The position numbers were made by a program, and so were the translations under genes. The notes under the pieces are model-generated. The model was given only the letters and a program-made list of their open reading frames with translations, was not told the origin of the DNA and did not search any database. Of a stretch of DNA of 32,000 nt, positions 4,123 through 25,677 are shown one piece after another. Numbering within the stretch: position 1 is the first letter of the stretch; every line of letters starts with the position of its first letter. Source of the DNA: Acaryochloris marina MBIC11017 (lineage in GTDB: Bacteria > Cyanobacteriota > Cyanobacteriia > Thermosynechococcales > Thermosynechococcaceae); the NCBI RefSeq assembly GCF_000018105.1, contig NC_009925.1:1620001-1652000 (forward strand). The letters are read 5' to 3'.

Positions 4123-4773
4123 ATGTACCTATTTTTAGATACCGCAGATATCAAGGCCTGGGATTTTTGGTTGAGTAAGGGCTTATTCTATGGCGTTACA
4201 ACCAACCCGACCTTATTGGAGAGAGCCCATATTCCTTGCACCCTTGACCAACTCCAAGGGCTAGCCACAGCTGCCTTTCAAAGAGGTGCTCAAGAAATTC
4301 ATTTACAGACCTGGGGGGCTGAAGTTGAAGATTTAGTTCGTCGGGGAACTGCGATCGCAGCTATTGATTCCCGCGTAGTCGTCAAAGTACCTATAACGTT
4401 GACAGGCACAGAAGCTGCAGCCCAATTAATCCAACAAGGAATACGGGTAACTTTAACTGGAGTTTATGCAGTTCACCAGGCATTGATTTCTGCCGCCTTG
4501 AAGGCTGACTATGCCGCCCCTTACTTAGGACGCATGACAGATCTGGGACAAGACGGTAGGCAAGGTATCATTTCGATGCAAAGAGGTCTGACCGGAGTCA
4601 AGAGTTCAACCAAGATTTTAGTTGCCAGTATTCGCAGCATTGAAGACATTACTGCTCTTACTCAACAATCCCTCGATACGTTTACGGTATCACCTGCGAT
4701 CGCAGAACAACTCTTCCAAGTCGATGCAACCATAGATGCAGCGTTAGCCTTTGAAAAAGCAGCACAAGGCTAA
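4123..4773 (+). CDS. fructose-6-phosphate aldolase / short transaldolase (TalC/FSA family)
   Basis: The 216-aa ORF carries LDTAD, GVTTNPTL, VVVKVPIT (Schiff-base Lys context) and YAAPYLGRMTD, the pattern of class 3B transaldolase/FSA enzymes. Confidence 0.8.
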   Translation: MYLFLDTADIKAWDFWLSKGLFYGVTTNPTLLERAHIPCTLDQLQGLATAAFQRGAQEIHLQTWGAEVEDLVRRGTAIAAIDSRVVVKVPITLTGTEAAAQLIQQGIRVTLTGVYAVHQALISAALKADYAAPYLGRMTDLGQDGRQGIISMQRGLTGVKSSTKILVASIRSIEDITALTQQSLDTFTVSPAIAEQLFQVDATIDAALAFEKAAQG

Positions 4774-7700
4774 TGGGATTCAATGCCTAATGCTTCTGCA
4801 GTAATCGGCAGCTTGACAATAAAAGTTGTGCCTTGATCTGCAATACTCTCAAAATCGATCGTCCCCCGATGCAGCTCGACGGACTTTTTAACAATTGCGA
4901 GACCTAGTCCTGTACCTTGAATTTGTCCAACATTTGTAGCGCGATGAAATGATTCAAACAGATGCTGCTGATCAGCTTCAGGAATCCCAATTCCTTGATC
5001 TTTTATGAAAAAGGTTGCTTCTTCTTCATTTACATTGACCTGAAATCGAACACTAGTACTTTCAGGAGAATATTTAATGGCATTGGACAATAAGTTACTG
5101 AGGATTTGTCTCAAAATTTTCTCGTCTGAATAGACCTCATGTTGATTCCAAAAAAATTCAAACTCAATCTGTTGATCGCGTTTAGTATTGAGCTGAAATT
5201 CTTCGACAAGACTACTGCAGAAAACTTCAAGGTTAATTAGTTTAGGATTAAACTCAACTTTATTGACATCAGCTTTACTCAAAACTAAGACATCATCTAG
5301 AAGTCCAGTCATATGCTTAACATTCTTTTGGATACGATCTAGATAAGTATGTTGCTTATTAGTATCCCACCCTTGTCCATAATGCTTGATTAACTCTGTT
5401 GTCCCTAAAATAGCTGTTAAAGGTGTTCGGAATTCATGGGAAGTCATCGAGATAAAGCGAGATTTCAATTCATTAATTTCTCGCTCAGCTTGTTCTCTAG
5501 CTTGAGATTGCTGTAAATCTTCATATAAATAGGCATTCTCAAGGGAAATAGCAGCTTGGGCACAAAGAATTCTAATGGTCTCGAGATGATTTTCCTTAAA
5601 GGCATCGTATACTAAATCATTCTCTAAATATACAATCCCTATTAATTTGCCTTGACTAATGATAGGCATTCCTAGTAAAGACTTTGGAAGATTAAAGTAT
5701 ATTTCCAAATTATAGTTTTCTTTATGCTCCTCTCTTGTGTCATTAATAACGACATTTTCTTTAGTCCTAAAGATATAGTTTAAAATGCTATGAGGGATAT
5801 CATTCCTATTCTTAATCAATTCTGTTTTGATTTTAACGATAGGTGAACTATTCATTGAAGCCGTTGCCTCTATATATAAATTTTCATCTCTATATAATAT
5901 TAAATAAGCTTGAGTTGCGCCAGCCAATTCAATGAGATACTCCAAGATTTTATTTAATAGTTTATCTCGTATAATTTCCTCGGAAATTGCCTGAGAAGTT
6001 TCTATGACAGTTCTTAAATCAATATTCCCCAGAGTTTCTGAAGATGATAGTTTTACGTTGTTTCCATCTTTCTGATATGAAGTAAAAATTTGCTTAAATT
6101 CCTCACTAATATTTGAATATCTATATTTGATATCTTCAATTTTTGATAACGCACCCCAATTAAAATAGGCATAACAAGATTCCTTGAAATATAAAGCAGA
6201 AATCTTAAAATTCTTATTGCTGAAATAAAATTCAGCTGCTAATTCATTGGCAAGAGCTTCCTCTTGTAAGAAAAGATTAGATTTTGAAGATTCGATAGCT
6301 TTATCGTAATATTTAGAAGAAGAACTAAAATTATTTATAACTCTATAATACTCAGCTTTAATCAGAAAATACTTATTGCTAAAATTCTCAGGGCAAGCTT
6401 TAGCCCATTTTTTAAATCTATGAATAATGCGATTAACTATAATTAAATACTTGCGACGGACAATAATTTTTTGCGTACTACACAAAGCCAATAAAGTTAA
6501 ACAATAGTAAAAATAATAAATTGCTATGTAAATTATTCCGTTTACACCATCAATATGATCATTCAGAAGATTAGATAAATGCAAAGCCTCATCAAATTTT
6601 TTATAGTAAAAAGATAAAATCATCTTTGCCAAATAAAAAGGAAAAATTATTAAATCGTTTGATGAATGAAGAATGTCAGAGCTTTGCTCTTCTTCATTAA
6701 AAAAACTACCTTCAAGTAAGCTCACATCTAGTTTAGTATCTACATAATTCTCAGATACTTGTGCCCAAATGCTTAAATGGGTACACTGAAAGTATTGCTT
6801 ATAACTCGACAAAATATCGATATACTTAAAATTCTCGTCAATAACTTCGGAAAGAGGTTTCCCGCTAAAAAAAGATAAAATGCAATAAAAAGCAGAGCAA
6901 TGACCTAGATTTTCAACATCACCAATTTCTAACGCGTAATTAGAAGCATTAGATAGATGGGTTAATAAACTTCTAATTTGATACTTCCATGGTTTATTAA
7001 AAGCATAGCCTACTAAATAAATAGCTGGTTTTATCTCATAGCTAGAAAACTTTTCAAGCAACTGCAATGATAAATCGCTATAACTACAACATTTTTCTAT
7101 ATCATTAAAAACAACATTATAAATTGTTCCATAACTATTATAAGCAAAGCCAGAAACTGGAGAATTACCATAGGATATAGATAGATTTACCATTTTTAAT
7201 ATAGCTAATGGAAAAAGATTAGGCCTAGCAACAAAAGCTGCGGGTACAACAGTCATAAGTACCCGCATTGCAGCAAGACTTTTTTCATCACTCATCACTG
7301 GTAACTCTGTTAAGCTCTCTATTGTAAGATTTCGATGTGATATTTTTGCTCTTAATACATTAAATAGTAGCTCTATTTTGTTAGGGTTATTCGGAAGTTT
7401 TACATTTAAAAGATTTAATGCTTCAATTGCTTTATCTATTGATTGCAAAGGTTGATTCTGAGTAAAACAGAAAGCAATTTGCAACTCATAGACAGAAATT
7501 TTAATCGACAAAGATTTTGCATTATGAATTAATTTTATAGCTAATGAATCAGCTTGATTTCTTTCTGAGCTTATATATAAGCACTCTAAAAGTGAAAGAT
7601 ATAATTCTGTACTAGAGTTATTAAAATTTTCTAAGCAATATTTTTTTGATAATACTGATGCTGTTTTATAATATTCACAAGCTGATTCATAAGCTGCTGC

Positions 7701-9985
7701 TAATTTAGATTTATTACCTGCTATAAAATTTAATTCAGCAAGCTCATTTTTCTTAATTAAATCATCAACAAGATGAATTCCTTTATTGAAATGCTTTATA
7801 ATTTCAAATAGCTTTTTATCAAAAGCTGAATCTCTGTATTTTCTCAACAAAAAATCTCCAATCAATAAATGCAGAGAGCTTTTTTCAGACTCAGGTATAC
7901 TGAGATAAATAGCTTGTTGAATATAATCATGTACAAATCTAAAATATATATTAAAATGAGGTTTAATGTCATCTTCAAGAAGTAAGTTAGACTCATAAGA
8001 ATCTTGTGTAGAGACAATCAATCCAGAATCAATAGCAGCGAACATAGTCTCTGTTAATTCTGATTTAGTCTTATGGCTAATACCCGCAAGAGTAATCAGA
8101 TCAAACTGACTACCTATACATGAACAATATTGAATTAAATCTTGTGTTTGTTTAGGTAATTTCTGTATATTCCTAGATAGTAGTTCTAAAACACTAAAGT
8201 CCGTAATACTACTTTTCAATATTCGTTCTATATTCCAATTCCATTTTTCTACAGCATAATCAAAATATATATACTTATCTTGATATAAAGTTTTTAATAG
8301 CTGAATAAGAAAAAACGGATTACCACCAGACTTTTGAAATATAAGGTTTGCTAAAAAATCAATATATTCAAGGTCGCAATTAAGAGTATCTGCGACAAGA
8401 TCTTTTGCAGAAGATAAAGATAATGGCTGCAATTCAATACTATGATTAATAAGATCTTTCTTATTTAAATCACTCAGTACTCTATTGAAAGGGTGTAATT
8501 TACTTATTTCAACATGACGGTACGCTAGTATAAATAAAATATACTTACTCTGCTTACTATTAGCTAGGCTAGTAAGCAACTCTAGAGAAGCAAAATCAGC
8601 CCACTGCAAATCATCCAAGAATAAAACTATAGGATGCTTCTTGCTACCAAAAGATTGTATAAATGTCTCTAGTGTCTGAATAAATATGGCTTGTGATTCT
8701 GGAATAACTTGTCTAATCTCAATCTGATCAATTTGTAAGACTATATTAAGTTCAGGAATAATATTAACTAATAGATTAATATTCTTTCCTAAAGAACTGA
8801 TAAATCTTTCTCTCCAGTAATTTATATCATTACTATTACTTCGCAATATTTTTCTAATAGCAATAGTCAAGCCTTGAACAAAGCCATAATAAGGAATATT
8901 CTTATGGCTTTGTTCAAATTTACCGCTAATTTCTATACCACAATGATCTGAATTACTTTTATTGATACTCTTTATAAGAGATGTTTTACCAACGCCAGCA
9001 TTTCCTTTCACAAGGATTATTCTTTTTTGACCAATAAAAGTACTTTTAAAGGCATTATTTAGGAGCTTAATTTCATTTTCTCTGCCATATAATTTATTAG
9101 GGATACTAAATTGACTAATAGCTATACTTTGTCTCGTTTTAAGAATAAAATCAGTATTATTAATAGATAAGTTTTTTACACATTGCTCTAGATCTACTAA
9201 TAGTTCTAATGCATTCTGATATCTGTCCTCAGCATTTTTCTGTAATAACCTCATAATTATTTGAGAAATCTGTTCAGGGATAAAATCATAAATATTGTGA
9301 GGAGTATCAGGAATAACAGATAAGTGCATATGAATAACCTCAGAGACTTTATGAGAATAAAATGGTAATCGACCAGTTAAAATCTCATAAAAAGTAATTC
9401 CTAATGAATATAAGTCAGTGCGATAATCAATTGTTCGATCTATTCTTCCAGTTTGTTCAGGAGATAAATAAAGTGGAGTCCCATTAATAATCTCTTCATC
9501 ATCAATACTTATTTTCTCTTGCGTATTTTCTGCGGCTATACTAAAGTCGGTCAACTTAACTTCATTAGTTTTTGGATTATAAATAATATTCGAAGGATTA
9601 ATATCTTTATGAATAATACCTTGCAAATGAACTTCATTTAAAGTTTTAGAAATCTGGCAAGCTATCTCCAAAAAAGTCCTTATATTTACGCGATTTTTAG
9701 ATATATATTCCTTCAGTGTACATCCTTCAAAATACTCTTTTATAAACGCATAATTATTGTTGTTTGCTATAAAAGAGTGTGCTTGTATAACTCCATTTGA
9801 ATTTAATTTATTAGTGATTTCAAATTCATTTTTAAGGCTAGAAATATCAGAAAATGATGGATATTTTTCACTTAGTCTCTTGGCAATAAATAATTTACCA
9901 CTAGAGGTATTTTTACTATATAAATAGTAATATTTTCTTTAGAGTAAAGTATTCTTTGAAACTCAAAGTTATTTATTTCAATCAC
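4770..9985 (-). pseudogene. HstK-type multidomain sensor: Ser/Thr kinase, AAA_16/STAND-like P-loop ATPase, helical repeats, GAF and His kinase (HisKA+HATPase). The N-terminus is split by an apparent 1-nt frameshift.
   Basis: The long frame 4770-9938 carries HKDINPSN, TDFS and GTPLYLSPEQ (kinase subdomains VI-VIII). It also has the P-loop GNAGVGKTS (about 8979-9005) and Walker B LFLDDLQWAD. The H-box is SHEFRTPL, with the His codon at 5436-5438. The N-box is LSNAIKYS and the G-boxes are DQGIGI and GTGLGL. Kinase subdomains I-II (VIEINNFEFQRILYSKENITIYIVK) sit in another frame upstream, from a GTG near 9985. The exact start is uncertain. Confidence 0.7.
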
Positions 9986-10299
9986 TTTTAAATCCTCTAT
10001 CAGAATCTTCCTAAAATTATGATTATTTTTAAAAAAATTATTTGTTTTTATATAAACACCATTGTGATAGATGGCGATCGAGTTTTTCTTATAAATTGTA
10101 GTGAAATCATATTATTATTTTATTGTATATTAAGACCAGAAAATGCTAATATTTGCATTAAAAAAGTTGCTTAAGGTATTTTTATTAGAATTAAAAATAC
10201 TAGCTAATATTCTAGCAAATTAAGTTTTTTATTTATCTATCTCAACCCCGAATGAATAGCAGATTTCAACATGGCTTGAAAGATACTTCGAAATATTGA

Positions 10300-10992
10300 A
10301 AACCTTAACGATTAAGGTATGCCCTAGACCTCACAGGACGTTTTGCCATGAAATGATTCAAACGATGCCAAGCGCAACTAGAAGCGCGAAACGATTGTTG
10401 GTCGTGCATCAAAAAAGAGTGGATATGCTTAACCTATAGGAAGTTGAGTTGTCCTTTTCACTAATGCAATGCCTTCTATGTTGTTATCCTAGGACCCAAA
10501 CAAGGCAAGATCAATAAAAGCAGATAACACTATTGTTGCTTGAACTTTTTAAAATACCCTCAGTGAGACCTTAGCAACCCTCGATTATCGTAATAAGATT
10601 CCAGGTGCTTCCTTAAACCTTGCTAGAGGGATTAGTCAGCGAGGGTTGTCTCGTATTACAGGTTAAGCTTTTAGGCCCTGGGTGAGCGTGGTCTGTTCTA
10701 TTGGCCATAAAACCCAAAAGAAACACAACCAAGAAGTGCAGGATGTTGTGACTGGCGGCACTAATACTGATGAGTTATGGCCCTTGGATATAAAAAGCAA
10801 AAGCACGTTTAATCGTAGGAGTTGCGTATAGGCAACTGTTGGGTAACACTGAGTCTTGCTAAAGATAATGGTTTGATGCACAGGGGTAGCGTTAGTAAAT
10901 ATACCAACGAGCTAACTCAAGCGTTGATTGAGAATACTGAAGGCAAAACTGCCTGTCGTTAAGAACACCACATCTTGGGCTTTTGGGGCTTA
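10300..10992 (+). mobile_element. degraded transposase-gene remnant (possibly IS1-like), cut at its 3' side by the IS5-family insertion
   Basis: One frame over about 10628-10830 reads GISQRGLSRITG*AFRPWVSVVCSIGHKTQKKHNQEVQDVVTGGTNTDELWPLDIKSKSTFNRRSCV*. An HTH-like segment followed by a DELW motif resembles transposases I remember, but in-frame stops are present. The family call is weak. Confidence 0.3.
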
Positions 10993-11009
10993 GAGGCTGT
11001 TTGAGAAGT
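10993..11009. repeat. left terminal inverted repeat of the IS5-family element
   Basis: GAGGCTGTTTGAGAAGT is the exact reverse complement of 11874-11890. Confidence 0.85.
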
Positions 11010-11071
11010 GAGTAAAGCTCTCAAGGTACTAATCTGTCAATACACAAACATTGGACAGGACTTTGAGAGCA

Positions 11072-11872
11072 ATGCCTACAGCATATGATAGCGACCTCAC
11101 CACCCTCCAATGGGAATTACTTGAACCTTTGATTCCTGCTGCTAAACCTGGAGGTAGACCTCGCACCACTGATATGCGCAGTGTTCTCAATGCCATTTTG
11201 TATCTCGTGGTTACGGGTTGTCAATGGAGACAGCTACCTCATGATTTTCCCTGTTGGTCAACGGTCTATAGCTATTTTCGAAGGTGGCGTGATGATGGGA
11301 CTTGGGTCCACATCAATGAACATCTACGCATGCAAGAGCGGGTGAGTGAAGACCGTCATCCGAGTCCCCGTGCTGCTATCTGTGATGCTCAATCAGTCAA
11401 AGTTGGTAATCCTCGGTGTCACTCGATTGGGTTTGATGGTGGAAAACAGATTAAGGGGCGTAAACGTCATGTGCTCGTTGATACTTTAGGACTGGTTCTG
11501 ATGGTGATAGTCACTGCTGCCAATATCTCTGACCAACGAGGGGCCAAAATACTGTTTTGGAAAGCTCGACGCCAAGGTGCGAGTTTGTCCCGTCTAGTTC
11601 GGATATGGGCCGATGCTGGCTATCAAGGACAAGCTTTTATGAAGTGGGTAATGGACCGTTTTCAATATGTCTTGGAAGTGATCAAACGCTCAGATAATCT
11701 AGCGGGGTTTCAGGTTATTCCCAAACGATGGATTGTAGAACGGACGTTTGGGTGGTTACTGTGGTCTCGACGTCTTAATAAAGATTATGAGGTGCTGACC
11801 AGAACAGCTGAAGCGCTCGTATATGTAGCGATGATTCGACTCATGGTTCGAAGGCTGACTGAAGAAGCTTGA
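11072..11872 (+). CDS. IS5-family DDE transposase (DUF4096-type HTH plus DDE_Tnp_1-like core)
   Basis: From the ATG at 11072 the ORF reads MPTAYDSDLTTLQWELLEPLIPAAKPGGRPRTTDMRSVLNAILYLVVTGCQWRQLP. The DDE candidates are ICDAQSVK, IWADAGYQG and VERTFGWL. The supplied ORF begins 7 codons earlier at a TTG. Confidence 0.85.
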   Translation: MPTAYDSDLTTLQWELLEPLIPAAKPGGRPRTTDMRSVLNAILYLVVTGCQWRQLPHDFPCWSTVYSYFRRWRDDGTWVHINEHLRMQERVSEDRHPSPRAAICDAQSVKVGNPRCHSIGFDGGKQIKGRKRHVLVDTLGLVLMVIVTAANISDQRGAKILFWKARRQGASLSRLVRIWADAGYQGQAFMKWVMDRFQYVLEVIKRSDNLAGFQVIPKRWIVERTFGWLLWSRRLNKDYEVLTRTAEALVYVAMIRLMVRRLTEEA

Positions 11873-11873
11873 A

Positions 11874-11890
11874 ACTTCTCAAACAGCCTC
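11874..11890. repeat. right terminal inverted repeat of the IS5-family element
   Basis: ACTTCTCAAACAGCCTC is the exact reverse complement of 10993-11009. Confidence 0.85.
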
Positions 11891-12713
11891 TTAGGAGAGA
11901 TTGGCACTTAAAACATAAATATCCTTTTTTCAAGGAGTGTTGGTTTGACGATAGGACGAAACGGCTAGATGCTCTGCTTGCTGAGTCGTCAGAGAGCTAG
12001 CTCACCCAAGGCATTTTTCAGTTGTTGGTTGTGGTCTGAAGCCATACCAGTCACTTTGTGGAAAAAGAATGACCGAATTCTGAGTTGACATAAGTCTGAA
12101 TTTGCTGACGTTCAGTCATCTCAACCCCTTCCAGCGTCTACAAGCTTGCTGTGTCGCTTTCCTCATAAAGTAATTGTGAAGATGGGTGTCCTAGTTTTTG
12201 AGTTGAACTGCTGTTTGGGAATGGATGGAGACTGTTAGGCAACACATGTATCCTGAACTTTTTCACATCAATCTGCAAAGGTGACATATTCCATAATCCA
12301 CAGATAACTTCTGTATTTTCAGTGCAGAATCGTTAAGCCTTCACTTGGAAGAAAGAAAGTATATCCCTTATGGCACCATGTTAGAAAAATTCAAAGCTCT
12401 AGATTTGCGAATCTAAAACTTTTTTGGTGTCAATCTTTTTAATGATATAGATAAAAATCTTACTGATAAGAGAAAATTTTTGATTTCATATAGCAATCAA
12501 CTAAATATCACCCCCTAATATTTAGAGATTGAGTATTTTGTAGCAATTAATACGAATTTACTAGCATTAATATGCTTTTTAAGCAAAAAAATACATATTT
12601 CTTAACATATATATTATTTTTATCAGTATATATGCGGATATGTGTCGATATAGATATACGTGAATTAGGTGAATTTGCGGATGATAGCTAATAGTAAAAC
12701 ACATAAATTATTT

Positions 12714-12751
12714 CTTATAGAAAACATATACTATCATATGTTTTCTATAAG
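12714..12751 (+). promoter_or_regulatory. perfect 16-bp-arm inverted repeat (operator or leader hairpin) upstream of the 893-aa gene
   Basis: CTTATAGAAAACATAT (12714-12729), then the loop ACTATC, then ATATGTTTTCTATAAG (12736-12751), followed by CTAATTTTTC. It lies 83-120 bp upstream of the ATG at 12834. Confidence 0.45.
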
Positions 12752-12760
12752 CTAATTTTT

Positions 12761-12776
12761 CTATCAATATTGATAG
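12761..12776 (+). promoter_or_regulatory. 16-bp perfect palindrome, candidate operator
   Basis: CTATCAATATTGATAG is self-complementary. It lies 58-73 bp upstream of the ATG at 12834. The CTATC half-site also occurs in the loop of the neighbouring hairpin. Confidence 0.4.
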
Positions 12777-12833
12777 TTTCCTAAAACTAAATCAGTCAGA
12801 TAATCTGCAATATCAAAATAACTGAGAGATTTC

Positions 12834-15515
12834 ATGAAAGAGATTCTTGAGCTAATTGAAAATAATCGTTCAAATTTTAGTGAATTAAACTTATTCCGTT
12901 TCTTACGTAATCAAAGTATTAATCCAGTTAAAAGACTAGCATTTGCTCCATGTATATCTCCTTTTGTGATGAGCTTTGGAGATTTAAATAAGTATGTACT
13001 GCAGCAGCATCCTACCTCAGACAAAATACAAGAAATTATTAATCAACACACTGCAGAAGAACATAATCATTGGAATTGGTTTTTAGAAGATATTCAGGCT
13101 TTAGGTTATGATTTTAATATAAATTTCAATAGTACTTTAAAGTTTCTTTGGAGTGAAGAAACAAAATCAGCACGCTGGATCTCATATCAGTTATATCGAT
13201 TTATTTATGATGCTGATTCTATTCAGAAACTTGTTGTTCTTGAAGCTATGGAAGCAACTTCTAGTGTTTTCTTCTCAGAAATAAGTAAAGTTGCAGAAGA
13301 ATTATATAAAACTAAAAGTATTAAGTGTAGATATTTTGGAGAACATCATCTAAAGGCTGAAGAGAGTCATAGTGCTTTTATGCCTGAAACTGATGATTAT
13401 ATAAATAAAATATTTATTCCACAAAAAAGAAAAGAAGAGCTAGCGACTATTGTCAATCAGATTTTTAATCTTTTTTCTGATTTAACAGAATCTTTCTTTC
13501 AATATGCTATAAAATATCAAGATAATTCTTTTCCTCTAAACTCATATTGTTCACAGAGCTATGACTATGAGTATATAATTATTGGTGCTGGACCAGCTGG
13601 ATTGCAATTAGGCTATTTTTTAGAAAATTCTAACCGAGACTATACTATTCTAGAATCCGGAGACTCCCCTGGTACTTTCTTTAAAGATTATCCCAGGCAT
13701 AGAAAACTAATTTCAATTAATAAAAGAAACACTGGCTATAGTGATCCAGAAATCAATCTTCGGTGGGATTGGAATTCACTTCTTACTCAAGATTATTCCA
13801 AGAATTTCACAGATTATAGCAAAAAATACTTCCCTTCAGCTGATAATTTAGTTGAATATTTCAACGATTATGCCAAAGAATTCTCGTTGAATATTAAGTA
13901 TGGAGTGACAGTTGAGAAAATATCCAAAAATCAAGGCTTTGTTCTATTGGATTCTTATGGTAATACTTACTCTTGCAAATACTTAGTTATTGCTACTGGA
14001 TGTCCTAAGTTATATATTCCAGAAATCAGTGGTATTGAACTAGCTGAGAAATATACTGATGTATCAGTTAATCCAGAGGATTTTGAAAATCAGCGAGTTT
14101 TGATTATTGGCAAAGGTAATTCTGCCTTTGAGACAGCCGATAATTTGATTGATACAGCTGTTACTATACATATTTGTAGTCCAAGTCCAGTAACTATGGC
14201 ATGGAAGACAAAGTATGTGGGCCATTTGCGAGCTGTAAACAATAATTTCCTCGACACATATCAACTTAAATCACAGAATGCCATCCTTGATGCTGAAATT
14301 CTGGGTATTAGGAAGAATAGAAATGAATATGTTGTGAATGTCAAATATTCTCATGCGAATGGAGAAAGTGAAGAGCTAGTTTATGATCGAATCATTCTTT
14401 GTACAGGTTTCCGTTTTGATGATTCAATCTTTGATGTAACATGTAAGCCAGCTCTAACAATTAATAATCGTTATCCAGCTCAGACTAGTGAATGGGAATC
14501 AACTAACATTCAAGATCTCTACTTTGCTGGCATTTTGATGCACATGAGAGATTTTAAGAAGAAACAGTCTGGTTTTATTCATGGTTTTCGCTATAACATC
14601 CGTACACTCCATCGAATATTTGAACACAAGCACCACCATGCACCTCTGCCATCTCGTAAAATTCCTCTATCTCCACAAGCAATAACAGATTTTATTATCG
14701 ATCGCGTCAACACCAGTTCCAGCTTATGGCAGCAAACGGACTTCATGTGCGACTTAATTACGGTTTCTGATGATAGTCAAGAAGTTCAATATTTTGACGA
14801 ATTAACCAAAGATTACATTCATGAGGGTTACCTAGGTAGACATGAACACTACTATACAGTTTCCCTAGAGTTTGGCCAGAATGTTGCTGATATTACAGAT
14901 CCATTTGCTATTGATCGAGTCCATAAAGAGGATGCTTTTAATTCTTCTCAAAGTGAGTTCATCCATCCTGTTATTCGTCGATTTCACAAAAATACACTCA
15001 TAGCAGAACATCATGTTATCGAAGATTTAGCGAGTGAATGGAAAGAAGACGTTCATATCCAACCGCTGTTGAAATTTATGACTGAGCAACTAACACACTC
15101 TCAAGGCATCGGAGCACATCTCCTTGAAGCGGGACTGCTAACTTCAGAACAGCTAGAAGTAGCCTTAGAAGACCAAGAAAGGCAAGCAACCGCTCGTTTA
15201 GGTGAGGTTATTCAAAAGCGCGGTTGGGTGAAAGAGCGGACCATCCAGTTCTTACTCAACCAAGTCAACAACACGCTAGTCGATCATCCTGCGTTAAACG
15301 CCTGTACTCAGCTGGGGAACAATCTAGTTGAAGCAGGATTACTAACCTCAGCACAAGTTGATGAAGCCATACAAGAGCAGAAAATCTCTAACAAGCGATT
15401 AGGAGAAATTCTAGTGAATCATGGCTGGGTCAATTCACAAACCATTGAATACATGATGAAACATCTCTCCAAAGCAAATGCTACAGCTCAACCAGAAGTT
15501 GCTGTGATGAACTAA
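12834..15515 (+). CDS. three-module fusion: heme-oxygenase-like diiron oxidase domain, FAD/NAD(P)-dependent (FMO/FOXRED2-like) oxidoreductase, and two MshEN/T2SSE_N-type units
   Basis: The ORF has 893 codons. The N-terminal domain carries AEEHNHW, VLEAMEATS and GEHHLKAEESHS. The flavoenzyme part carries GAGPAG (13584-13601), VIATG, GKGNSA (14109-14126), LCTGF and SGFIHGFRYN. The C-terminal units read IGAHLLEAGLLTSEQLEVALEDQ / RLGEVIQKRGWV and LGNNLVEAGLLTSAQVDEAIQEQ / RLGEILVNHGWV. A terminator hairpin follows the stop. Confidence 0.7.
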   Translation: MKEILELIENNRSNFSELNLFRFLRNQSINPVKRLAFAPCISPFVMSFGDLNKYVLQQHPTSDKIQEIINQHTAEEHNHWNWFLEDIQALGYDFNINFNSTLKFLWSEETKSARWISYQLYRFIYDADSIQKLVVLEAMEATSSVFFSEISKVAEELYKTKSIKCRYFGEHHLKAEESHSAFMPETDDYINKIFIPQKRKEELATIVNQIFNLFSDLTESFFQYAIKYQDNSFPLNSYCSQSYDYEYIIIGAGPAGLQLGYFLENSNRDYTILESGDSPGTFFKDYPRHRKLISINKRNTGYSDPEINLRWDWNSLLTQDYSKNFTDYSKKYFPSADNLVEYFNDYAKEFSLNIKYGVTVEKISKNQGFVLLDSYGNTYSCKYLVIATGCPKLYIPEISGIELAEKYTDVSVNPEDFENQRVLIIGKGNSAFETADNLIDTAVTIHICSPSPVTMAWKTKYVGHLRAVNNNFLDTYQLKSQNAILDAEILGIRKNRNEYVVNVKYSHANGESEELVYDRIILCTGFRFDDSIFDVTCKPALTINNRYPAQTSEWESTNIQDLYFAGILMHMRDFKKKQSGFIHGFRYNIRTLHRIFEHKHHHAPLPSRKIPLSPQAITDFIIDRVNTSSSLWQQTDFMCDLITVSDDSQEVQYFDELTKDYIHEGYLGRHEHYYTVSLEFGQNVADITDPFAIDRVHKEDAFNSSQSEFIHPVIRRFHKNTLIAEHHVIEDLASEWKEDVHIQPLLKFMTEQLTHSQGIGAHLLEAGLLTSEQLEVALEDQERQATARLGEVIQKRGWVKERTIQFLLNQVNNTLVDHPALNACTQLGNNLVEAGLLTSAQVDEAIQEQKISNKRLGEILVNHGWVNSQTIEYMMKHLSKANATAQPEVAVMN

Positions 15516-15545
15516 GTTAATTCGTTCTTTCTTTGGAATAATGAC

Positions 15546-15580
15546 CTCTCCTCCATATGTCTGTGGAGGAGAGTTTTTTT
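15546..15580 (+). terminator. Rho-independent terminator of the 893-aa gene
   Basis: The stem is perfect over 10 bp: CTCTCCTCCA (15546-15555) pairs with TGGAGGAGAG (15564-15573). The loop is 8 nt, followed by T7 (15574-15580). It lies 31 nt after the stop codon. Confidence 0.75.
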
Positions 15581-15647
15581 GTAGTTGAGTCCCTATTACC
15601 AACTCAAGCAAAGACAAAATACTCATCATCAAGTGTAGGAATTATTG

Positions 15648-17672
15648 TCAGGATTTGAGGTAGGTATAGCTTCTGAGACTACGCTCATAATTTTTGAGGA
15701 GCAGCTGGGCTTCTGGTAATGTGATGTGCTGTTCTTGCAATGCCACCTCAGACTGTTTGCGAATTTCTTCTATCAGATCATCGGCGTCATATTGGACATA
15801 TTCCAGCACCTCGGTAATTGTGTCCCCCTTAACCACATGGGCAATGTGATACCCCATCGGAGTCAAATCAATATGGACGACATTGGTATCGCCAAATAAA
15901 TTATGCAGATTACCCATGACTTCTTGATAGGCACCGTTCAGAAACATCCCCAAATAATAGGGTTCGTTGGGCTTTAAGGTATGTAGCTCCAGAATAGGTT
16001 TGGTATCACGAGAATAGATAAATTGATCGATTTTGCCATCACTATCGCAGGTGAGATCGACGAGGGTTCCCCTTTGGGTGGGTTCTTCTTCTAAGCGGTG
16101 AATCGGCATAATCGGGAACAGCTGATCAATGGCCCAGGTATCAGGGGCAGATTGAAACACCGACAGATTCGTGTAATAAAGCGACGCCATTCGGCGTTCA
16201 AGATCTTCTAAGTCGACAGCCACATCATCGTCTTTTCGTGCGATCGCAAGTATTCTCTGACAACAGGCCCCACAGAGTCGCTCGACCCTAGCCCGCCCTT
16301 CCAGGCTCAGATAGCCAAACCCAAACAGGCTAACCGCTTCTTCCTTGAACTGGAGAGCATCATGATAGGCTTCTTGATAGTTCTCGGTATCAATAGTTTG
16401 ATAGGTTTCCCAGAGATTCCGAATAATCAGATGTTCGTCGGCCTGAGCGGGTTCTGGGGTGAGGTTGAGGGTGTCGCTACTGCCCAGTACATTCATAATC
16501 AGGACAGACTGGTGAGAAGCAATCGCCCGTCCACTTTCACTCACTAGGGTAGGCACAGGGATATCTGCTTCCGCGCAAGCTTCCTTCACCTCAGCCACGA
16601 CATCATTGGCGTAATTCTGCATATTGTAGTTTTTAGACGCCGCCGAGTTACTTTTAGACCCGTCGTAATCAACCCCCAAGCCACCACCCACATCTAAGAA
16701 CTTCATATTGGCCCCCAATCGGGCCAGCTCTACATAGATTTGACTGGCTTCTCGCAGGGCATCTTTGATGACGCTAATGGCTGAGATTTGAGAACCAATA
16801 TGGAAATGAAGCAGCTGCAAAGAGTTCAGTAGATTCGCGGCCCGCAGATGCTCGACAGCGGCTACAACTTCTGGAATGTTGAGGCCAAATTTAGCGCGGT
16901 CCCCCGCACTCGTCCCCCATCGGCCAATCCCTTTGGCGCTGAGCTTGGCACGAACACCCAAAATCGGCTGAATCTGGAGCCGACGGCTAGCTTCGATCAC
17001 CAGCTCCACTTCTTCGAGTTGTTCAATCACAATAATCGCCTGATGGCCCAAACGCTGGGCCAGCATAGCGGTTTCGACATATTCCAAATCTTTATAGCCA
17101 TTGCAGATCAGCAACGCACCAGAGGTTTTGAGGGAGGCAATGGCAATCAGTAATTCTGGTTTGGAACCCGCCTCTAATCCAAACTGGTGGGGCTGCCCAA
17201 AACGGACCAAGTCTTCTACAAGATGACGCTGTTGATTACATTTAACGGGAAAAACGCCTCGGTAGCGGCCGGGATAGCTGTAGCGTGCGATCGCTTTGGC
17301 GAAACAAGCGTTTAATCGCTCAATTCGATCCGCCAAAATGTCTGAAAATCGGATCAGCAAAGGGGCATGGATATCTCGCTGCTGCAGGGACTGGACCAGC
17401 TCATAGAGGTCTAAAGAGCCCCCTCGATCAGCCTTGGGCGATACGGTTACATGGCCCGCTGCATTAACGGAAAAATAGGGTTCTCCCCAGCCCCGAATGC
17501 GGTAGAGCTTTTCGCTTTCCTCAATCGACCATGCCGCATCTGTCTGTTCAGGGTTTGGGTCTGATGTCAGCGGTCGTTCTCGCATCGGCGCTGAATGACC
17601 ATTCTCCAACTCTGCCGCTAGAGTTTGGGAAATTTTGGTAGCCCTATCTTCACGGTTTCGACCGTTTTCCAT
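15648..17672 (-). CDS. speA: biosynthetic arginine decarboxylase
   Basis: The ORF is 674 aa. It carries WSIEESEKLYRIRGWGEPYFSVNAAGHVTV, FPVKCNQQ (PLP Lys context), and DVGGGLGVDYDGS, the canonical SpeA motifs. Confidence 0.9.
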   Translation of the reverse strand: MENGRNREDRATKISQTLAAELENGHSAPMRERPLTSDPNPEQTDAAWSIEESEKLYRIRGWGEPYFSVNAAGHVTVSPKADRGGSLDLYELVQSLQQRDIHAPLLIRFSDILADRIERLNACFAKAIARYSYPGRYRGVFPVKCNQQRHLVEDLVRFGQPHQFGLEAGSKPELLIAIASLKTSGALLICNGYKDLEYVETAMLAQRLGHQAIIVIEQLEEVELVIEASRRLQIQPILGVRAKLSAKGIGRWGTSAGDRAKFGLNIPEVVAAVEHLRAANLLNSLQLLHFHIGSQISAISVIKDALREASQIYVELARLGANMKFLDVGGGLGVDYDGSKSNSAASKNYNMQNYANDVVAEVKEACAEADIPVPTLVSESGRAIASHQSVLIMNVLGSSDTLNLTPEPAQADEHLIIRNLWETYQTIDTENYQEAYHDALQFKEEAVSLFGFGYLSLEGRARVERLCGACCQRILAIARKDDDVAVDLEDLERRMASLYYTNLSVFQSAPDTWAIDQLFPIMPIHRLEEEPTQRGTLVDLTCDSDGKIDQFIYSRDTKPILELHTLKPNEPYYLGMFLNGAYQEVMGNLHNLFGDTNVVHIDLTPMGYHIAHVVKGDTITEVLEYVQYDADDLIEEIRKQSEVALQEQHITLPEAQLLLKNYERSLRSYTYLKS

Positions 17673-19277: not shown

Positions 19278-22200
19278 TTAGGCAGACGTCAACATCTTTT
19301 CCGTCGCCCCTTCGCTGACTTCTGCCCGCTCTGCCTCTGAAGGGGGAACCACCTGCCAGAACTGCAGCAGATATTCTGACCAGTGATCTAAGATGTCTTG
19401 ACCTTTGGGACTACCTGTATGGTCTACATGGGTTTGGATTAAAGCCTTTAACTGTTGGGCACCCGCTTCCGTATTGACTCGCTGAATTTGAACAATCTCT
19501 GGGTTGACCTTAGTGGGAAAACTGCCATCTTCATCTAAGAAGTAGGCCAGTCCGCCTGTCATACCCGCACCCACATTACGCCCTGTCTCTCCAAGGACAA
19601 CCACGACACCACCCGTCATATATTCACAGCAGTGATCGCCTGCCCCTTCAATCACGGCTTGACCTTGGGAATTGCGCACGGCAAATCGTTCGCCCGCTTT
19701 ACCGTTGGCGTAGAGGGTGCCTCCGGTGGCGCCATAGAGACAGGTGTTACCAATAATCACGTTGTCCGCCGCAGCATAGGTGGCTTCTGGTGAAGGTTTG
19801 ATGGTAATTTCACCGCCATGCATGCCCTTGCCCACATAGTCATTGGCTTCTCCCACTAGGTTGAGGATCATGTTAGGTAAGGTAAAGGCCCCAAAGCTTT
19901 GGCCCGCACTGCCTTCAAAGGTGAGGTTAAGTTGCCCGGTAAATCCGGTATTGCCGTATTGTTTTGAGATCGCACCCGCAATCCGCGCCCCCACACTTCG
20001 ATCTGTATTCACAACCCTCACGGTTTTGGCCACAGTCGTTTGATTTTGAATCGCCTCCTGAATCTCAGCATTCTGAAGCAACTCATCATCTAAGACCGGA
20101 CCATTGCTATGAACTGGGCCATGATCCAACCAGCTCCGATCCGTGCGGGTGTCGGGAAGGTGGGTCAGACAATCGAGATTAAGCTGCGAGGTTTTGGTGA
20201 GTTGAGCATCCTCTCGCACCTGCAACAGATCGGCTCGACCAATCACTTCATTGAGGGAGTGATATCCCAGGTGAGCCAGCAGAGAGCGCACTTCTTCGGC
20301 AATAAAGTAGAAAAAGTTAACCACATGCTCGGGGATACCCGTAAATCGCTGGCGCAGCTTTTCTTGCTGGGTGGCAACCCCTACGGGACAGTTATTGGTA
20401 TGGCAGATGCGGGCCATAATACAGCCTTCAGCAATCATGGCAATGGAGCCAAAGCCGTATTCCTCAGCCCCCATTAGGGCCGCCATCAGCACGTCCCATC
20501 CGGTTTTTAGGCCACCATCGGCCCGGAGAATAACGCGATCTCGCAGTTGATTCACCATCAAAGCTCGATGCACTTCCGTTAGCCCCAGTTCCCAGGGGCT
20601 GCCTGCATGTTTAATCGAACTCAAAGGGGAGGCTCCGGTGCCACCATCATGACCAGAAATTTGAATCACATCGGCATTGGCTTTCGCCACTCCAGCGGCA
20701 ATTGTGCCAATACCAATTTCTGCCACTAGTTTGACAGAGACTTTGGCTTGGGGATTGATCTGATGCAGATCGAAAATCAGCTGAGCCAGATCTTCAATGG
20801 AGTAAATATCGTGGTGAGGTGGAGGAGAAATCAGCGTAACTCCAGGCTTGGAGCGGCGCAGCATGGCAATATAGGGGCTGACTTTTTTACCTGGCAACTG
20901 TCCCCCTTCACCAGGTTTTGCGCCTTGGGCCAACTTAATTTCAATTTGCTGAGCATTCATCAGGTATTCCGGGGTGACCCCAAACCGTCCCGATGCCACC
21001 TGTTTAATCCCGGAGCTAGCCGTATCGCCATTGCGAAGTCCTTGTAAATGGGGCAGTACGGCCGACTTACCGTTGGCATCTACATCAGAGAGCACCTTAA
21101 ACCGCACCGTATCCTCGCCGCCTTCGCCAGAATTGGATTTGGCTCCCATTCGGTTCATGGCAATCGCCAAGACTTCATGGGCTTCCCGAGACAAGGCCCC
21201 TAGGGACATGCCGCCTGTGCAGAAACGCTTGACGATGGCTTCCACCGACTCCACTTCCGTAAGGGGTATGGCGGTGCGATCGCTCTTAAAATCCAGTAAA
21301 TCCCGTAGGGCCGTCACGGGCCGACTCAGGAGCTGCTGCTTATAAACCTGGTAGTGGTCATGGTCTTTATCAGCCACGGCTTTATGCAAGGCCTTGGACA
21401 TATCCGGGTTGTTCATATGGTATTCACCCCCCGGACGAAACTGGATAAAGCCAAAGTTTTCTAGCTTTTTCAGATCCAATTCGGGGAAGGCTTTCTGGTG
21501 AAAAGCCATCGTCTCTTGAGCCAGTTCAGCAATGGTCAGTCCTCCCACCCGAGAGGTGGTGCCTGCGAACCCCAGCTCTAGAAGTTCTGGGCCAATGCCA
21601 ATGCCCTCAAAAATCTGAGCGCCCTGATAGCTAGAAATCAGGGAAATCCCCATCTTAGAGAGAATCTTGAGTAAGCCTGCTTCCACGGCTTTGCGATAGT
21701 TACTTTGGGCACCGCCAATGGTCATGGCTGGAATTTTGCCCCGCGTCATCAGCTTTTGGGTGCGCTCATCGGACCACCAGTGACGCACGGATTCTAGGGC
21801 CAAGTAGGGACAAATAGCCGCTGCCCCAAACCCAATCAAACAGGCAAAGTGATGGGTACTCCAGCACTGAGCCGTTTCCACAACCAGTGAAGCCTGCAGG
21901 CGAATTTCTTGTTTGACCAAATGCTGGTGGATGGCCCCCACCGCTAGCAATGGCGGGATATAGCTATAGTCGGCATTGAGCCAGGTGGTCTCTCCCGTGG
22001 GCGTCTGGCGATCGCTAATCACTAATATCTGCTGCCCCGATTGGACGGCAGCGGTGGCCTGTTTACAGAGGGACTGGACGGCAGTGGCTAAGCCTTCTGG
22101 GCCATTACTGAGGGGGAATAAGGTGGAGAGGGTTTGCACCCCAAAGTCTGAGCCTCGAATCGCCCCCAGCTCTGTTTCATTGATCACCGGAGAATTGAGC

Positions 22201-23909: not shown

Positions 23910-24368
23910 GATCGGGTTCAGAATATAGGGGTGAAAAAATGGCTGCGCTATCTCAAGATGCAGCCCAAAAAGTTCAGCGGATCGCCTTCAATCCCAGTAG
24001 TGCACAAAGCAATCGGGAGAAAATGTATCTTATGTAACCAAAGGATAATCCGCCTAACGCAGATGTATCGGATAATGCCGGAATCCTTGGAATACTTAAG
24101 GTTCCCTCTCTACAGTCAATGAAGGCAGGTGTCTGTGAAGAAGGAGAGGGGCAATCAGATGTTGTGCTCTGCGTATTAAATCTTAACGCAAAACATCCCG
24201 AATCTACCGTTGCCTTTGCCAGCCTCATCTAAAGGGCTCTTGTACATTTCAGGATAATTTTTGGTCTTTCAGAATTAATGTCAAATAACAATTCGGGGAA
24301 CTGAGTTGGGACTGGTTATATTCGATGTGCCAGAGCAACCACAAAACGGACTGCAGTTCATCCATGCG

Positions 24369-25106: not shown

Positions 25107-25141
25107 TTCCCCTAGTCATTTATTCCCGTTGAACTGGAGTT

Positions 25142-25654: not shown

Positions 25655-25677
25655 GCCTGCTTGCAACATTAACTCTT

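Follow-up and report, generated by a model that had tools for sequence, protein, structure and literature searches.

A resident and polymorphic sensor kinase/oxidase cassette between tal and speA in Acaryochloris marina

Introduction

The agr specificity groups of Staphylococcus form a pherotype system akin to comQXPA of Bacillus subtilis, and O-antigen and capsule loci are low-GC hypervariable cassettes between conserved genes. In comQXPA, strains that are ~99% identical in their housekeeping genes are polymorphic in the signal-synthesis genes and in the sensor-encoding 5′ part of the histidine kinase (HK) gene, and the catalytic part of the kinase is conserved (PMC6334282, PMC4408185). Diversifying STAND systems have been described in multicellular bacteria (PMC7159879).

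Heme-oxygenase-like diiron oxidases (HDOs) act in the skt cluster (SktA/SktB/SktC) of Nostoc punctiforme NIES-2108 and in the aetokthonotoxin pathway. SktA yields skatole, cyanide and CO2, and AetD yields a nitrile (PMC11611611, PMC10654658, PMC11869266). The ligands of AetD are D76, H79, E140, H172, E176 and H179, and its Trp contacts are F44, F48 and Y167 (PMC11611611, PMC10654658).

Here we describe a locus of Acaryochloris marina MBIC11017 that resembles several of these systems. The window is the whole stretch of 32,000 nt that was analyzed (NC_009925.1, positions 1,620,001 to 1,652,000), and all coordinates refer to it. A preliminary description had read 4770-15515 as a horizontally acquired, AT-rich island carrying two large genes.

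Results

The locus is bounded by conserved genes: on the left by tal/fsa (4123..4773, plus strand; Pfam TAL_FSA), which is 90–97% identical to its relatives at the amino acid level, and on the right by speA, encoding arginine decarboxylase (15648..17672, minus strand; Pfam), which is 91–99% identical. Between them lie a kinase gene on the minus strand (4770-9985 in its corrected extent; Pfam) and, transcribed divergently from it, a fusion gene encoding an 893-aa protein on the plus strand. Pfam returns the gene content of the preliminary description, apart from corrections to the kinase, the insertion sequence (IS), its neighboring "debris", and the MshEN region.

In the full-length kinase from locus L001, the Pfam domain order is Pkinase, AAA_16, TPR-like (TPR_CHK1), GAF, HisKA, and HATPase_c. 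The first four of these (AAA_16 being the STAND domain) form a hypervariable sensor (aa 1-1477; 5556..9985, minus strand; Pfam), and HisKA + HATPase_c form the C-terminal shoulder (last 261 aa; 4770..5555, minus strand; Pfam). The catalytic motifs read from translations are, from the N-lobe on, the beta3 Lys (FIAK), HKDINPSN, DFS, and SPE, followed by Walker A (GNAGVGKTS), Walker B (LFLDDLQWAD), and the H-box (SHEFRTPL). The Gly-rich loop is a degenerate one, a trait shared with homologues. The kinase is a cytoplasmic protein. The window copy of the gene is interrupted at 9909-9913, where a T-run has lost 1 nt; the same sequence assembled independently reads T6 there and has an uninterrupted ORF of 1738 aa. 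With this frameshift in the kinase and an IS in the promoter region, the window copy may be inactive. Homologues of the kinase carry the NCBI name [quoted passage not shown], a cyanobacterial type with the same architecture (Pkinase-AAA_16-TPR-GAF-HisKA-HATPase_c), which we take to be the HstK-type dual kinases. The orthologue group of the window kinase differs from these in being tied specifically to HDO clusters, and its sensor part is hyperpolymorphic in Acaryochloris; neither feature was found described for such kinases in the literature searched.

The fusion gene opens with a hypervariable domain of the AetD/SktA HDO type (aa 1-242; 12834..13559, plus strand), homologous to SktA and AetD. 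Residues 1-227 align without gaps to AetD (8ji2; phmmer: E = 1.6e-43), and Pfam Haem_oxygenas_2 gives only a sub-threshold match. The domain has the full 3-His/3-carboxylate set (E76, H79, E140, H172, E176, and H179) and the Trp contacts F44, F48, and Y167; at T142 and F214 it agrees with SktA (PMC13108848), and at M139 with AetD. Pocket residues 41, 139, 146, and 221 vary by allele class. The metal ligands and most pocket residues are kept in all alleles, so that the products may be identical. The domain is followed by a two-dinucleotide-binding flavoprotein (Pyr_redox_3, YpdA/FMO-like; 13560..15125, plus strand; Pfam) with an additional C-terminal domain of ~170 aa; the AF2 model of the flavoprotein has a pLDDT of 82.9, and its best Foldseek matches are 3d1c, Bdr/YpdA, and SMFMO. 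Between alleles, the flavoprotein is moderately variable (61–93% identity) and mosaic. In contrast to the skt cluster, the locus has neither a PF04820 halogenase (SktB type) nor a PF00743 FMO (SktC type), and its HDO is fused to the YpdA/FMO-like flavoprotein and two GSPII units; of such domains Pfam finds Pyr_redox_3 alone in the enzyme, and no halogenase fold occurred for the enzyme among the best 50 Foldseek matches listed.

These two tandem GSPII/MshEN-like units form the conserved right shoulder (15126..15515, plus strand; phmmer: PilF 6f8l, E = 4.2e-10; MshE 5htl, E = 2.6e-5). The 24-residue c-di-GMP motif matches them in neither its strict nor its relaxed form: the hydrophobic core pattern is retained in three of the four half-sites, each unit has G or Q in place of the first Arg in its first half-motif and a missing or displaced final Gln in its second, and the unit-1 spacer has six residues. 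The MshEN homology proposed earlier stands, but the second-messenger gating attached to it is unproven because the motif is incomplete.

The divergent intergenic region (9986..12833) has native AT-rich spacers (GC 0.22–0.25) and no nucleotide homology to other alleles. It measures only 0.8–1.8 kb in relatives, and in the window it holds a strain-specific insert of ~2.1 kb at 10251-12350. An IS5-family element lies here (10989..11894 including its TTA target duplication, plus strand; Pfam DUF4096 + DDE_Tnp_1), whose transposase occupies 11051-11872 and whose 21-nt inverted repeats show 95% complementarity, with TTA on either side; it is a later, strain-specific insertion. The intact IS and the AT-rich spacers had been recognized before, but the adjoining "IS debris" (10251-10988 and 11895-12350; GC 0.42) contains no ORF, and no homologue of it was detected, so that its origin from an IS is unproven.

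The composition of the interval is as atypical as first reported. GC is 0.256–0.344 in every 500-nt bin across 5001-10500 and 0.26–0.38 across 12501-15000, against 0.45–0.59 in the backbone; over the full 4770-15515 it is 0.337 (0.312 without the IS-bearing centre, 10251-12350), against 0.483 in the remainder of the window. The kinase sensor has a GC3 of 0.20 and the HDO domain one of 0.17, compared with 0.51–0.56 in ldpA, the R3H ATPase gene, speA, and gltS. The earlier hand counts of GC (12/60 at 6301-6360, 14/60 at 7501-7560, 12/60 at 13081-13140, and 31/60 at 21001-21060) are all exact. The same description had counted at least 13 backbone copies of the HIP1 octamer and none at 4704-16239; an exact search for GCGATCGC gives 13 copies in the window (0.17 in shuffles) and none in that 11.5-kb gap, where 7.3 are expected at backbone density (Poisson P(0) = 6.6e-4). 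In related Acaryochloris loci the cassette likewise has a GC of 0.27–0.38 and nearly lacks HIP1, and in other cyanobacteria this cluster is mildly rich in AT and poor in HIP1 (tally: 37 sites in 131 kb vs. 248 sites in 313 kb).

The kinase gene adjoins tal, in convergent orientation, in all nine related Acaryochloris loci examined, among them L007 (IP29b_bin.137), L008, L009 (A. marina, CP064923), L011 (IP29b_bin.148), L090 (a CCMEE 5410-type contig), L092, L096, and L097; it also adjoins tal in the strain's own contigs. The comparison sequences are mostly Logan or metagenome contigs without strain identity. The HDO-flavoprotein gene is present wherever the contig reaches that far (five loci), and speA lies beyond it in four of these (L008, L009, L090, and L092), L011 having a different right flank. 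The stops of tal and the kinase overlap by 4 nt, an overlap kept in L007, L008, L009, L090, L096, and L097. Over its outer 0.8 kb, the kinase gene is 96–99% identical to that of a close relative, so that there is no insertion junction of the AT-rich tract at 4770. No tRNA was found, no integrase was found by Pfam, the sole recombinase being the transposase of the internal IS, and no direct repeat was found bounding the AT-rich interval. The interval is a resident copy of a two-gene module, not an insertion.

Sequence comparison indicates that the core of the locus (~5560-13560), made up of the 1477-aa sensor portion, the divergent promoter region, and the HDO domain, is a polymorphic cassette, being 36–46% identical between strains whose flanks are 96–100% identical. 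Between the window and L090, identity is 94% in ldpA, 99% in R3H, 97% in tal, 96% in the HK part, and 99% in speA, whereas it is 38–52% in the sensor and 41% in the HDO domain. The kinase shoulder, 96–97% identical to that of L090 with dS of 0.07 and a nucleotide identity of 96–99% up to ~5500, is by these measures conserved and follows backbone history. The breakpoint is abrupt at ~5500-5666, and nucleotide homology to relatives is back at ~13561. Sensors that are 36–46% identical among alleles are joined to HK domains at least 96% identical; the most divergent segment is the STAND/TPR middle (33–40%), and the HDO domain is 37–47% identical to other alleles. Three alleles occur in one species (L096, L097, and L009), with R3H at 99–100%, tal at 97–98%, HK at 96–97%, and the sensor at just 38–39%. 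Among 13 pairs with HK identity of at least 95%, the sensor is 38–66% identical, and among pairs with MshEN identity of at least 95%, the HDO domain is 40–49% identical.

Sensor divergence was significantly and positively correlated with HDO divergence (Mantel test on 10 contig-matched pairs: r = 0.88, P = 2e-4), as was HK divergence with MshEN divergence (r = 0.74, P = 6e-4), but there was no significant correlation between sensor and HK (Mantel: r = −0.11), and neither sensor nor HDO divergence tracks its own conserved shoulder. Crossovers are confined to the closest stretches that are conserved, namely the HK domain on one side and the flavoprotein on the other, so that whatever lies between is passed on as a unit; the sensor and the HDO can therefore be inherited together without any selection, and physical linkage alone could give r = 0.88. 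Flanking dS is 0.03–0.24 and the core is saturated (pS ~0.7), with dN/dS of 0.06–0.3 (0.06–0.15 where unsaturated), which points to old alleles under purifying selection and not to ongoing positive selection. The allele class of the window recurs in the distant background L007 (tal 82%, sensor 67%), and close backgrounds hold other classes, of which at least five occur at this locus and seven in the set of 22 clade sequences. All 22 kinases are 1738–1759 aa long (1738–1744 aa in 21) and all 22 enzymes 886–896 aa, with motifs intact. A copy in another context, L093, is decaying (split flavoprotein, HDO H179Y).

The HDO, the flavoprotein, and the Pkinase-AAA_16-GAF-HisK protein are neighbors in 20 of 25 cyanobacterial loci whose contexts otherwise differ, and the trio is conserved across cyanobacterial orders; they are likewise neighbors in Nostoc sp. 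C052. This co-occurrence supports the suggestion that the two genes form a single module. The same kind of giant kinase is adjacent to L094, a Nostoc cluster with the skt layout, and the skt paper makes no mention of a kinase.

Discussion

Among described systems, comQXPA is matched in its pattern of variation: the oxidase domain and kinase sensor are 36–46% identical, the HK domain is 96–98% identical, and the variable parts are co-inherited. Two marks of a pherotype locus, synthase/sensor polymorphism with a conserved kinase domain and co-variation of sensor and HDO, are found here. The locus differs from comQXPA in having no peptide pheromone and no membrane receptor; the signal would be made by a diiron oxidase-flavoprotein fusion, its sensor is a cytoplasmic STAND/GAF protein, and its divergence is far deeper (saturated dS, compared with 65–70% nucleotide identity in comQ). 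It would share with O-antigen and capsule loci a fixed chromosomal site, replacement of alleles by recombination within the conserved flanks, lasting low GC, and deep within-species divergence, but it holds a signalling kinase and an oxidative enzyme, no surface-polysaccharide genes, and breakpoints that lie inside genes, at domain boundaries.

We are quite confident that the locus holds anciently diverged allelic cassettes at a fixed site, exchanged between strains. The exchange proceeds by homologous recombination within the conserved shoulders, which on the left are the His-kinase catalytic domain and tal, and on the right the flavoprotein, the GSPII units, and speA. Lateral movement of DNA does take place, as had been supposed, but by allelic replacement of a resident cassette through homologous recombination, not by insertion. 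The low GC and lack of HIP1 would reflect a long separate history of the cassettes, which, being too divergent for internal recombination, would be out of reach of the genome-wide processes by which GC and HIP1 are maintained at a high level. The shoulders, though following backbone history, are AT-enriched too (GC3 0.29 in HisKA + HATPase_c, 0.40 in tal), so that separate ancestry alone is insufficient to explain the composition.

That an island of ~10.7 kb came recently from a low-GC donor and settled between tal and speA, with both genes as cargo, is highly improbable. The locus does share with classical genomic islands a strongly atypical composition, a missing host iterated palindrome (HIP1), and an IS in its centre, but every relative has it at this site, and it ends on either side in ordinary conserved parts of genes, one of them the near-identical outer 0.8 kb of the kinase gene that leaves no junction at 4770. 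In nine related loci tal has the same genes next to it, with speA beyond them in four and with the same composition; the 4-nt stop overlap is kept, neither an integrase nor a tRNA nor a bounding repeat was found, and the IS inserted later, in this strain, with its own TTA duplication. Synteny in relatives refutes the island view, and it is the very outcome that the preliminary description had named as counting against it. A fusion of an AT-rich contaminant to a cyanobacterial backbone during assembly or binning has practically no chance of being the explanation; nothing specific favors it, although short-read contigs end at the IS, and independent Logan assemblies from several runs give both junctions at 100% identity, with the same arrangement in a complete NCBI chromosome.

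A function in conflict or defence, with the STAND-TPR sensor diversifying against phage or grazer factors and the activated enzyme releasing toxic cyanide or skatole, is unlikely. It would suit an architecture in which a STAND NTPase (AAA_16) precedes a TPR-like region (TPR_CHK1) and the STAND/TPR middle as the most divergent segment, and there are precedents in cyanide release by SktA-type enzymes (PMC11869266) and in diversifying STAND systems (PMC7159879). However, PADLOC matches are limited to the generic protein-kinase domain, the enzyme has none, other defence genes were not found nearby, the saturated synonymous sites with dN/dS of 0.06–0.3 indicate old alleles under purifying selection, and no reason is offered why an effector oxidase domain should vary as much as the sensor. 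We consider it quite unlikely that the polymorphism is functionless, a neutral by-product of a weakly expressed, dispensable locus drifting AT-rich while old haplotypes are shuffled by chance. Block inheritance does follow mechanically from the distribution of homology, the window copy carries a frameshift and an IS, the L093 copy is decaying, and other cyanobacteria too have a mildly AT-rich cluster with few HIP1 sites. Against this, kinase and enzyme lengths are uniform with motifs intact in all 22, dN/dS is well under 1, the trio is conserved across cyanobacterial orders, and at least five saturated haplotypes are hard to keep in one species without balancing selection or repeated import. 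The best overall explanation, which we regard as reasonably probable, is a resident, swapped sensor/oxidase cassette; that it has a matched metabolite-sensor function is less likely than not.

What that function might be can be proposed only tentatively: by analogy with SktA and AetD, the cassette could encode a pathway for a Trp-derived indole metabolite with a dedicated, allele-matched sensor kinase. The fused enzyme would oxidize tryptophan or ring-modified tryptophan at its diiron site, the fused flavoprotein would modify the substrate or the product, and the divergent kinase would be the dedicated sensor/regulator of the pathway, signalling via the conserved His-kinase part. Given the joint inheritance of sensor and oxidase alleles, a matched metabolite-sensor specificity probably varies between strains, in a way that would parallel comQXP or agr pherotypes. 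More doubtful is the idea that the cassettes are "chemotypes", in which each diiron oxidase variant would make its own slightly different, tryptophan-derived, membrane-permeant indole and the matched kinase would sense only that compound. If so, the locus would be a small-molecule kin-recognition or quorum system under frequency-dependent selection, and the giant Pkinase-STAND-GAF-His-kinases beside SktA-type clusters across the cyanobacteria would be receptors for the products of those clusters.

Gene content of the tal-speA interval

Pfam searches place two large genes between tal (4123-4773, plus strand) and speA (15648-17672, minus strand): a Pkinase-AAA_16-TPR_CHK1-GAF-HisKA-HATPase_c kinase gene on the minus strand, convergent on tal, and a plus-strand gene (12834-15515) whose 893-aa product has a Pyr_redox_3 core. 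As read in the window, the kinase ORF begins within the kinase domain, and the absent N-terminus is found in a different frame. A contig from Logan run SRR29694082, 99.98% identical to the window, has T6 in place of the T5 of the homopolymer at 9909-9913 and carries an intact kinase ORF of 1738 aa; the true gene is therefore 4770-9985, and the 1-nt frameshift reflects a sequencing error or else a genuine null allele (one further difference between the two is a substitution at 2732). The stop codons of tal and the kinase overlap by 4 nt (4770-4773), an arrangement shared by six related loci but not by L092, which is more distant. Beyond the window's left edge, at ~7 kb from tal (1814-2959 of L001, a Logan contig of the same sequence), lies a response regulator of PatA type (PatA_N + Response_reg), a candidate partner for the kinase; one is also present on the left flank in the related loci L090, L092, L096, and L097.

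Between the two genes, an IS (10989-11894) with 21-nt inverted repeats, a TTA duplication, and an IS5-family transposase (11051-11872, Pfam) interrupts a 1.2-kb stretch with GC 0.42 (10251-10988 and 11895-12350). These segments, putatively IS debris, contain no ORF in six frames, have no Rfam match, and show no blastn or tblastx similarity to any fetched locus; the stretch is missing from relatives, whose intergenic regions are shorter. No Rfam family (gathering threshold) and no tRNA (ARAGORN) was found in the whole window.

An AT-rich but resident locus

The preliminary description had read 4770-15515 as an acquired island, AT-rich and free of HIP1 sites, carrying sensor and effector genes. 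The compositional observation is confirmed. Over 5001-10500, all 500-nt bins have GC of 0.256-0.344, and over 12501-15000 they have 0.26-0.38, backbone bins being at 0.45-0.59; the low-GC tract has sharp boundaries. Overall, 4770-15515 has GC 0.337 vs. 0.483 in the remainder of the window (0.312 with the central insert removed), and the four hand counts of GC in 60-nt lines made earlier were all exact on recount. The bias peaks at third codon positions: GC3 is 0.20 for the kinase sensor and 0.17 for the HDO domain (the AetD/SktA-type heme-oxygenase-like diiron oxidase part of the 893-aa protein), compared with 0.40 for tal and 0.51-0.56 for most backbone genes. The window contains 13 HIP1 sites (0.17 in shuffles), and none of these falls from 4704 to 16239, where 7.3 are expected at backbone density (P(0) = 6.6e-4). 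Two more lower-GC patches are present, at 24001-25500 (0.42), where two ORFs (24369-25106 and 25142-25669) match no Pfam family, and at 27501-29000 (0.35-0.41), upstream of a subtilase gene (28944-30737).

The reading as an acquired island is rejected. We recovered the neighborhoods in relatives through exact-protein and homologue look-ups. The order ldpA, R3H-ATPase, tal, kinase (opposite strand), HDO-flavoprotein gene, and speA (opposite strand) is found in L009 (A. marina CP064923), L090 (a CCMEE 5410-type contig), L008, and the more distant L092. L011 (Acaryochloris sp. IP29b_bin.148) shares the run from tal through the kinase to the HDO-flavoprotein gene and has a different right flank, and in L007, L096, and L097 the tal-kinase junction alone was seen. 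Across these eight loci the kinase and HDO-flavoprotein genes have GC of 0.27-0.38 vs. ~0.51 in their flanks, and they are HIP1-free, bar one site in L090. The same two genes thus occupy the same locus with the same composition in related genomes, the outcome that the preliminary description itself had set as evidence against a recent gain. A scan of genome contigs gave no outgroup with an empty tal-speA site among the matches listed. In L093 and L014, more distant relatives in which the module sits in other genomic contexts, it is again AT-rich and HIP1-free. In other cyanobacterial orders (L010-L065), the HDO/flavoprotein/kinase cluster has GC ~2-6 points under its flanks, and HIP1 is ~2.8-fold depleted (37 sites in 131 kb vs. 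248 sites in 313 kb of flank, by our own tally).

Divergence of the core within conserved flanks

Between the window and L090, amino acid identity is 94% for ldpA, 99% for the R3H ATPase, 97% for tal, 99% for speA, and 96% for the HisKA/HATPase (HK) part of the kinase. In the remainder of the kinase it is 42% (Pkinase), 38% (STAND), 39% (middle), and 52% (GAF), and in the enzyme it is 41% for the HDO, 52-67% for the flavoprotein, and 80% for the GSPII units. Nucleotide identity is 96-99% up to ~5500 and then falls to 40-50%, the level of unrelated AT-rich sequence; homology returns at 13561, and identity exceeds 93% again only past 15750. The left breakpoint lies ~30 aa upstream of HisKA, and the right breakpoint is the HDO/flavoprotein junction.

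The same pattern is visible in L096, L097, and L009, where R3H (99-100%), tal (97-98%), and HK (96-97%) are nearly identical, yet the sensors are 38-39% identical. Among the 22 kinases of the clade, 13 pairs have HK identity of at least 95% but sensor identity of 38-66%, and single-linkage clustering at 60% yields seven sensor classes. The enzyme parallels the kinase, pairs with GSPII identity of at least 95% having HDO identity of 40-49%. Since within-clade identity drops as low as 36%, matching identity to other orders (39-41%), these distances are saturated.

Age, selection, and linkage

Synonymous divergence between the window and L090 is low in the flanks (dS = 0.13-0.24) and in the HK domain (0.07), whereas the core has reached synonymous saturation (pS = 0.70-0.83); between L008 and L009, flank dS is 0.03-0.11 and the core is equally saturated. 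For allele pairs close enough for measurement, dN/dS is 0.06-0.15. Lengths are near-constant, with 1738-1744 aa in 21 of the 22 kinases and 886-896 aa in the enzymes. These values mark the alleles as old and functional, neither fast-evolving nor decaying.

In ten contig-matched gene pairs, the identity of the HDO rose with that of the sensor (r = 0.88, Mantel P = 2e-4), and GSPII identity with HK identity (r = 0.74, P = 6e-4), but sensor and HK (r = -0.11) and HDO and GSPII (r = -0.24) were unrelated. Furthermore, the window's allele class reappears in the distant background of L007 (tal 82%, sensor 67%), while close backgrounds hold other classes. The core thus forms a single cassette, which moves laterally between strains by recombination in the conserved shoulders. 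Such block inheritance is mechanical because crossovers require homology, and linkage on its own is no proof of co-adaptation. The AT-richness of the cassette could plausibly stem from its recombinational isolation, but the conserved shoulders are likewise AT-enriched, which counts against isolation as the full account.

The HDO-flavoprotein-GSPII enzyme

Residues 1-227 of the enzyme match AetD without gaps (E = 1.6e-43). When compared with published ligand and pocket residues of AetD and SktA (PMC11611611, PMC10654658, PMC13108848), the HDO keeps the full set of six metal ligands as well as F44, F48, and Y167, which contact Trp, with T142 and F214 as reported for SktA and M139 as in AetD. Pocket positions 41, 139, 146, and 221 vary by allele class; depending on the class, position 146, at which AetD has one jaw of its indole clamp, holds F, A, L, or S.

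The flavoprotein part carries both Rossmann motifs, and its AF2 model (pLDDT 82.9) resembles 3d1c, YpdA/Bdr, SMFMO, and N-hydroxylases rather than halogenases; a further ~170-aa domain at its C-terminal end gave no match when the model was used in a fold search. Being YpdA/FMO-like, it is neither a PF04820 halogenase nor a PF00743 FMO, which rules out SktB and SktC. A WDW sequence (W311-D-W313) was considered as the halogenase WxWxI(P) motif and rejected, its spacing from GxGxxG being wrong and no halogenase being among the best fold-search matches. Homologues of the flavoprotein core (residues ~245-755; 50-56% identity; L033-L089) are widespread beyond cyanobacteria without HDO or kinase (Acidobacteriota, Actinomycetota, Pseudomonadota, Planctomycetota, Bacteroidota, and Chloroflexota). 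This core family is highly conserved, and no name among the returned homologues indicates an assigned function.

The C-terminus consists of two GSPII/MshEN-like units that fit neither the strict nor the relaxed published c-di-GMP motif (PMC5013675), so second-messenger gating of the enzyme is unproven. The units also match PF14332 weakly (E = 2.2e-5), a family that the Pfam scan calls DUF4388 and precomputed gene tables call PatA_N.

Association of kinase and oxidase across cyanobacteria

Among the matches listed, 25 cyanobacterial loci contain the flavoprotein, and the HDO is present in 24 of them and a Pkinase-AAA_16-GAF-HisK protein within a few kb in 20; the next commonest neighbor family reaches only 7/25. 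These counts support the earlier proposal of a sensor plus effector module. In L094 (Nostoc sp. C052, CP040272.1; 10001-19876), the HDO is followed by a PF04820 Trp halogenase and a PF00743 FMO, the layout of the published skt cluster, and a convergent 1872-aa Pkinase-AAA_16-GAF-HATPase gene lies directly downstream. The published cluster comprises three genes, and the paper makes no mention of a kinase. We relied on L094 for this layout because SktA of N. punctiforme NIES-2108 was not among the matches listed in the profile search and cluster look-up. As the kinase accompanies the skt-type layout as well, HDO and kinase are the constant partners, and the tailoring flavoenzymes vary.

The copy of the module in L093 (ENA ERZ25070786; 6273-9171), where the context differs, looks degraded: the flavoprotein is divided between two ORFs (308 and 273 aa), and the HDO, which is encoded separately, carries Tyr at position 179, a metal ligand elsewhere. 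Some kinase homologues, among the P0181, P0235, P0240, P0047, P0069, and P0309 entries, end in GGDEF-EAL instead of HisKA/HATPase. The longest contigs of two of these (8846 and 13474 nt) equal in size that of a flavoprotein homologue, and 13474 nt is also the size of an HDO homologue's, which suggests a c-di-GMP output in some versions of the module.

Interpretation

The locus is best explained as a resident, polymorphic biosynthesis and sensor module whose variable core is kept as several ancient cassettes swapped between strains. The enzyme would generate a Trp-derived indole product and the kinase would sense it, with recognition that may be allele-specific. Its closest parallel is comQXP, a pherotype locus where conservation of comQ, comX, and the 5' portion of comP is poor between near-identical strains (PMC6334282, PMC4408185). 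Diversification through defense or an arms race is possible; PADLOC, however, gave it no specific support, returning only generic kinase models (PD-T4-6, Stk2, and mad6) over kinase residues 20-317 and no match on the enzyme. A neutral origin of the polymorphism is possible as well. Its alleles, 36-46% identical over 1477 aa and an enzyme domain, are swapped as a unit inside an otherwise single species, which makes the cassette a candidate case of balancing selection, or of strain recognition, in a phototroph.

A strongly AT-rich stretch that lacks HIP1 in a cyanobacterium is not necessarily a recent insertion; it can also be a polymorphic cassette that has long persisted at one fixed site. 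The hypervariable cassette and the tie of SktA-type oxidases to giant kinases make the locus of greater interest than first proposed, and the HDO-flavoprotein-GSPII fusion offers natural-product enzymology a compact, one-polypeptide target. A large cyanobacterial family of obscure function, the Ser/Thr-kinase/STAND/His-kinase proteins, gains a concrete conserved genomic partner in AetD/SktA-type diiron oxidase clusters, and what these giant kinases sense becomes a directly testable question.
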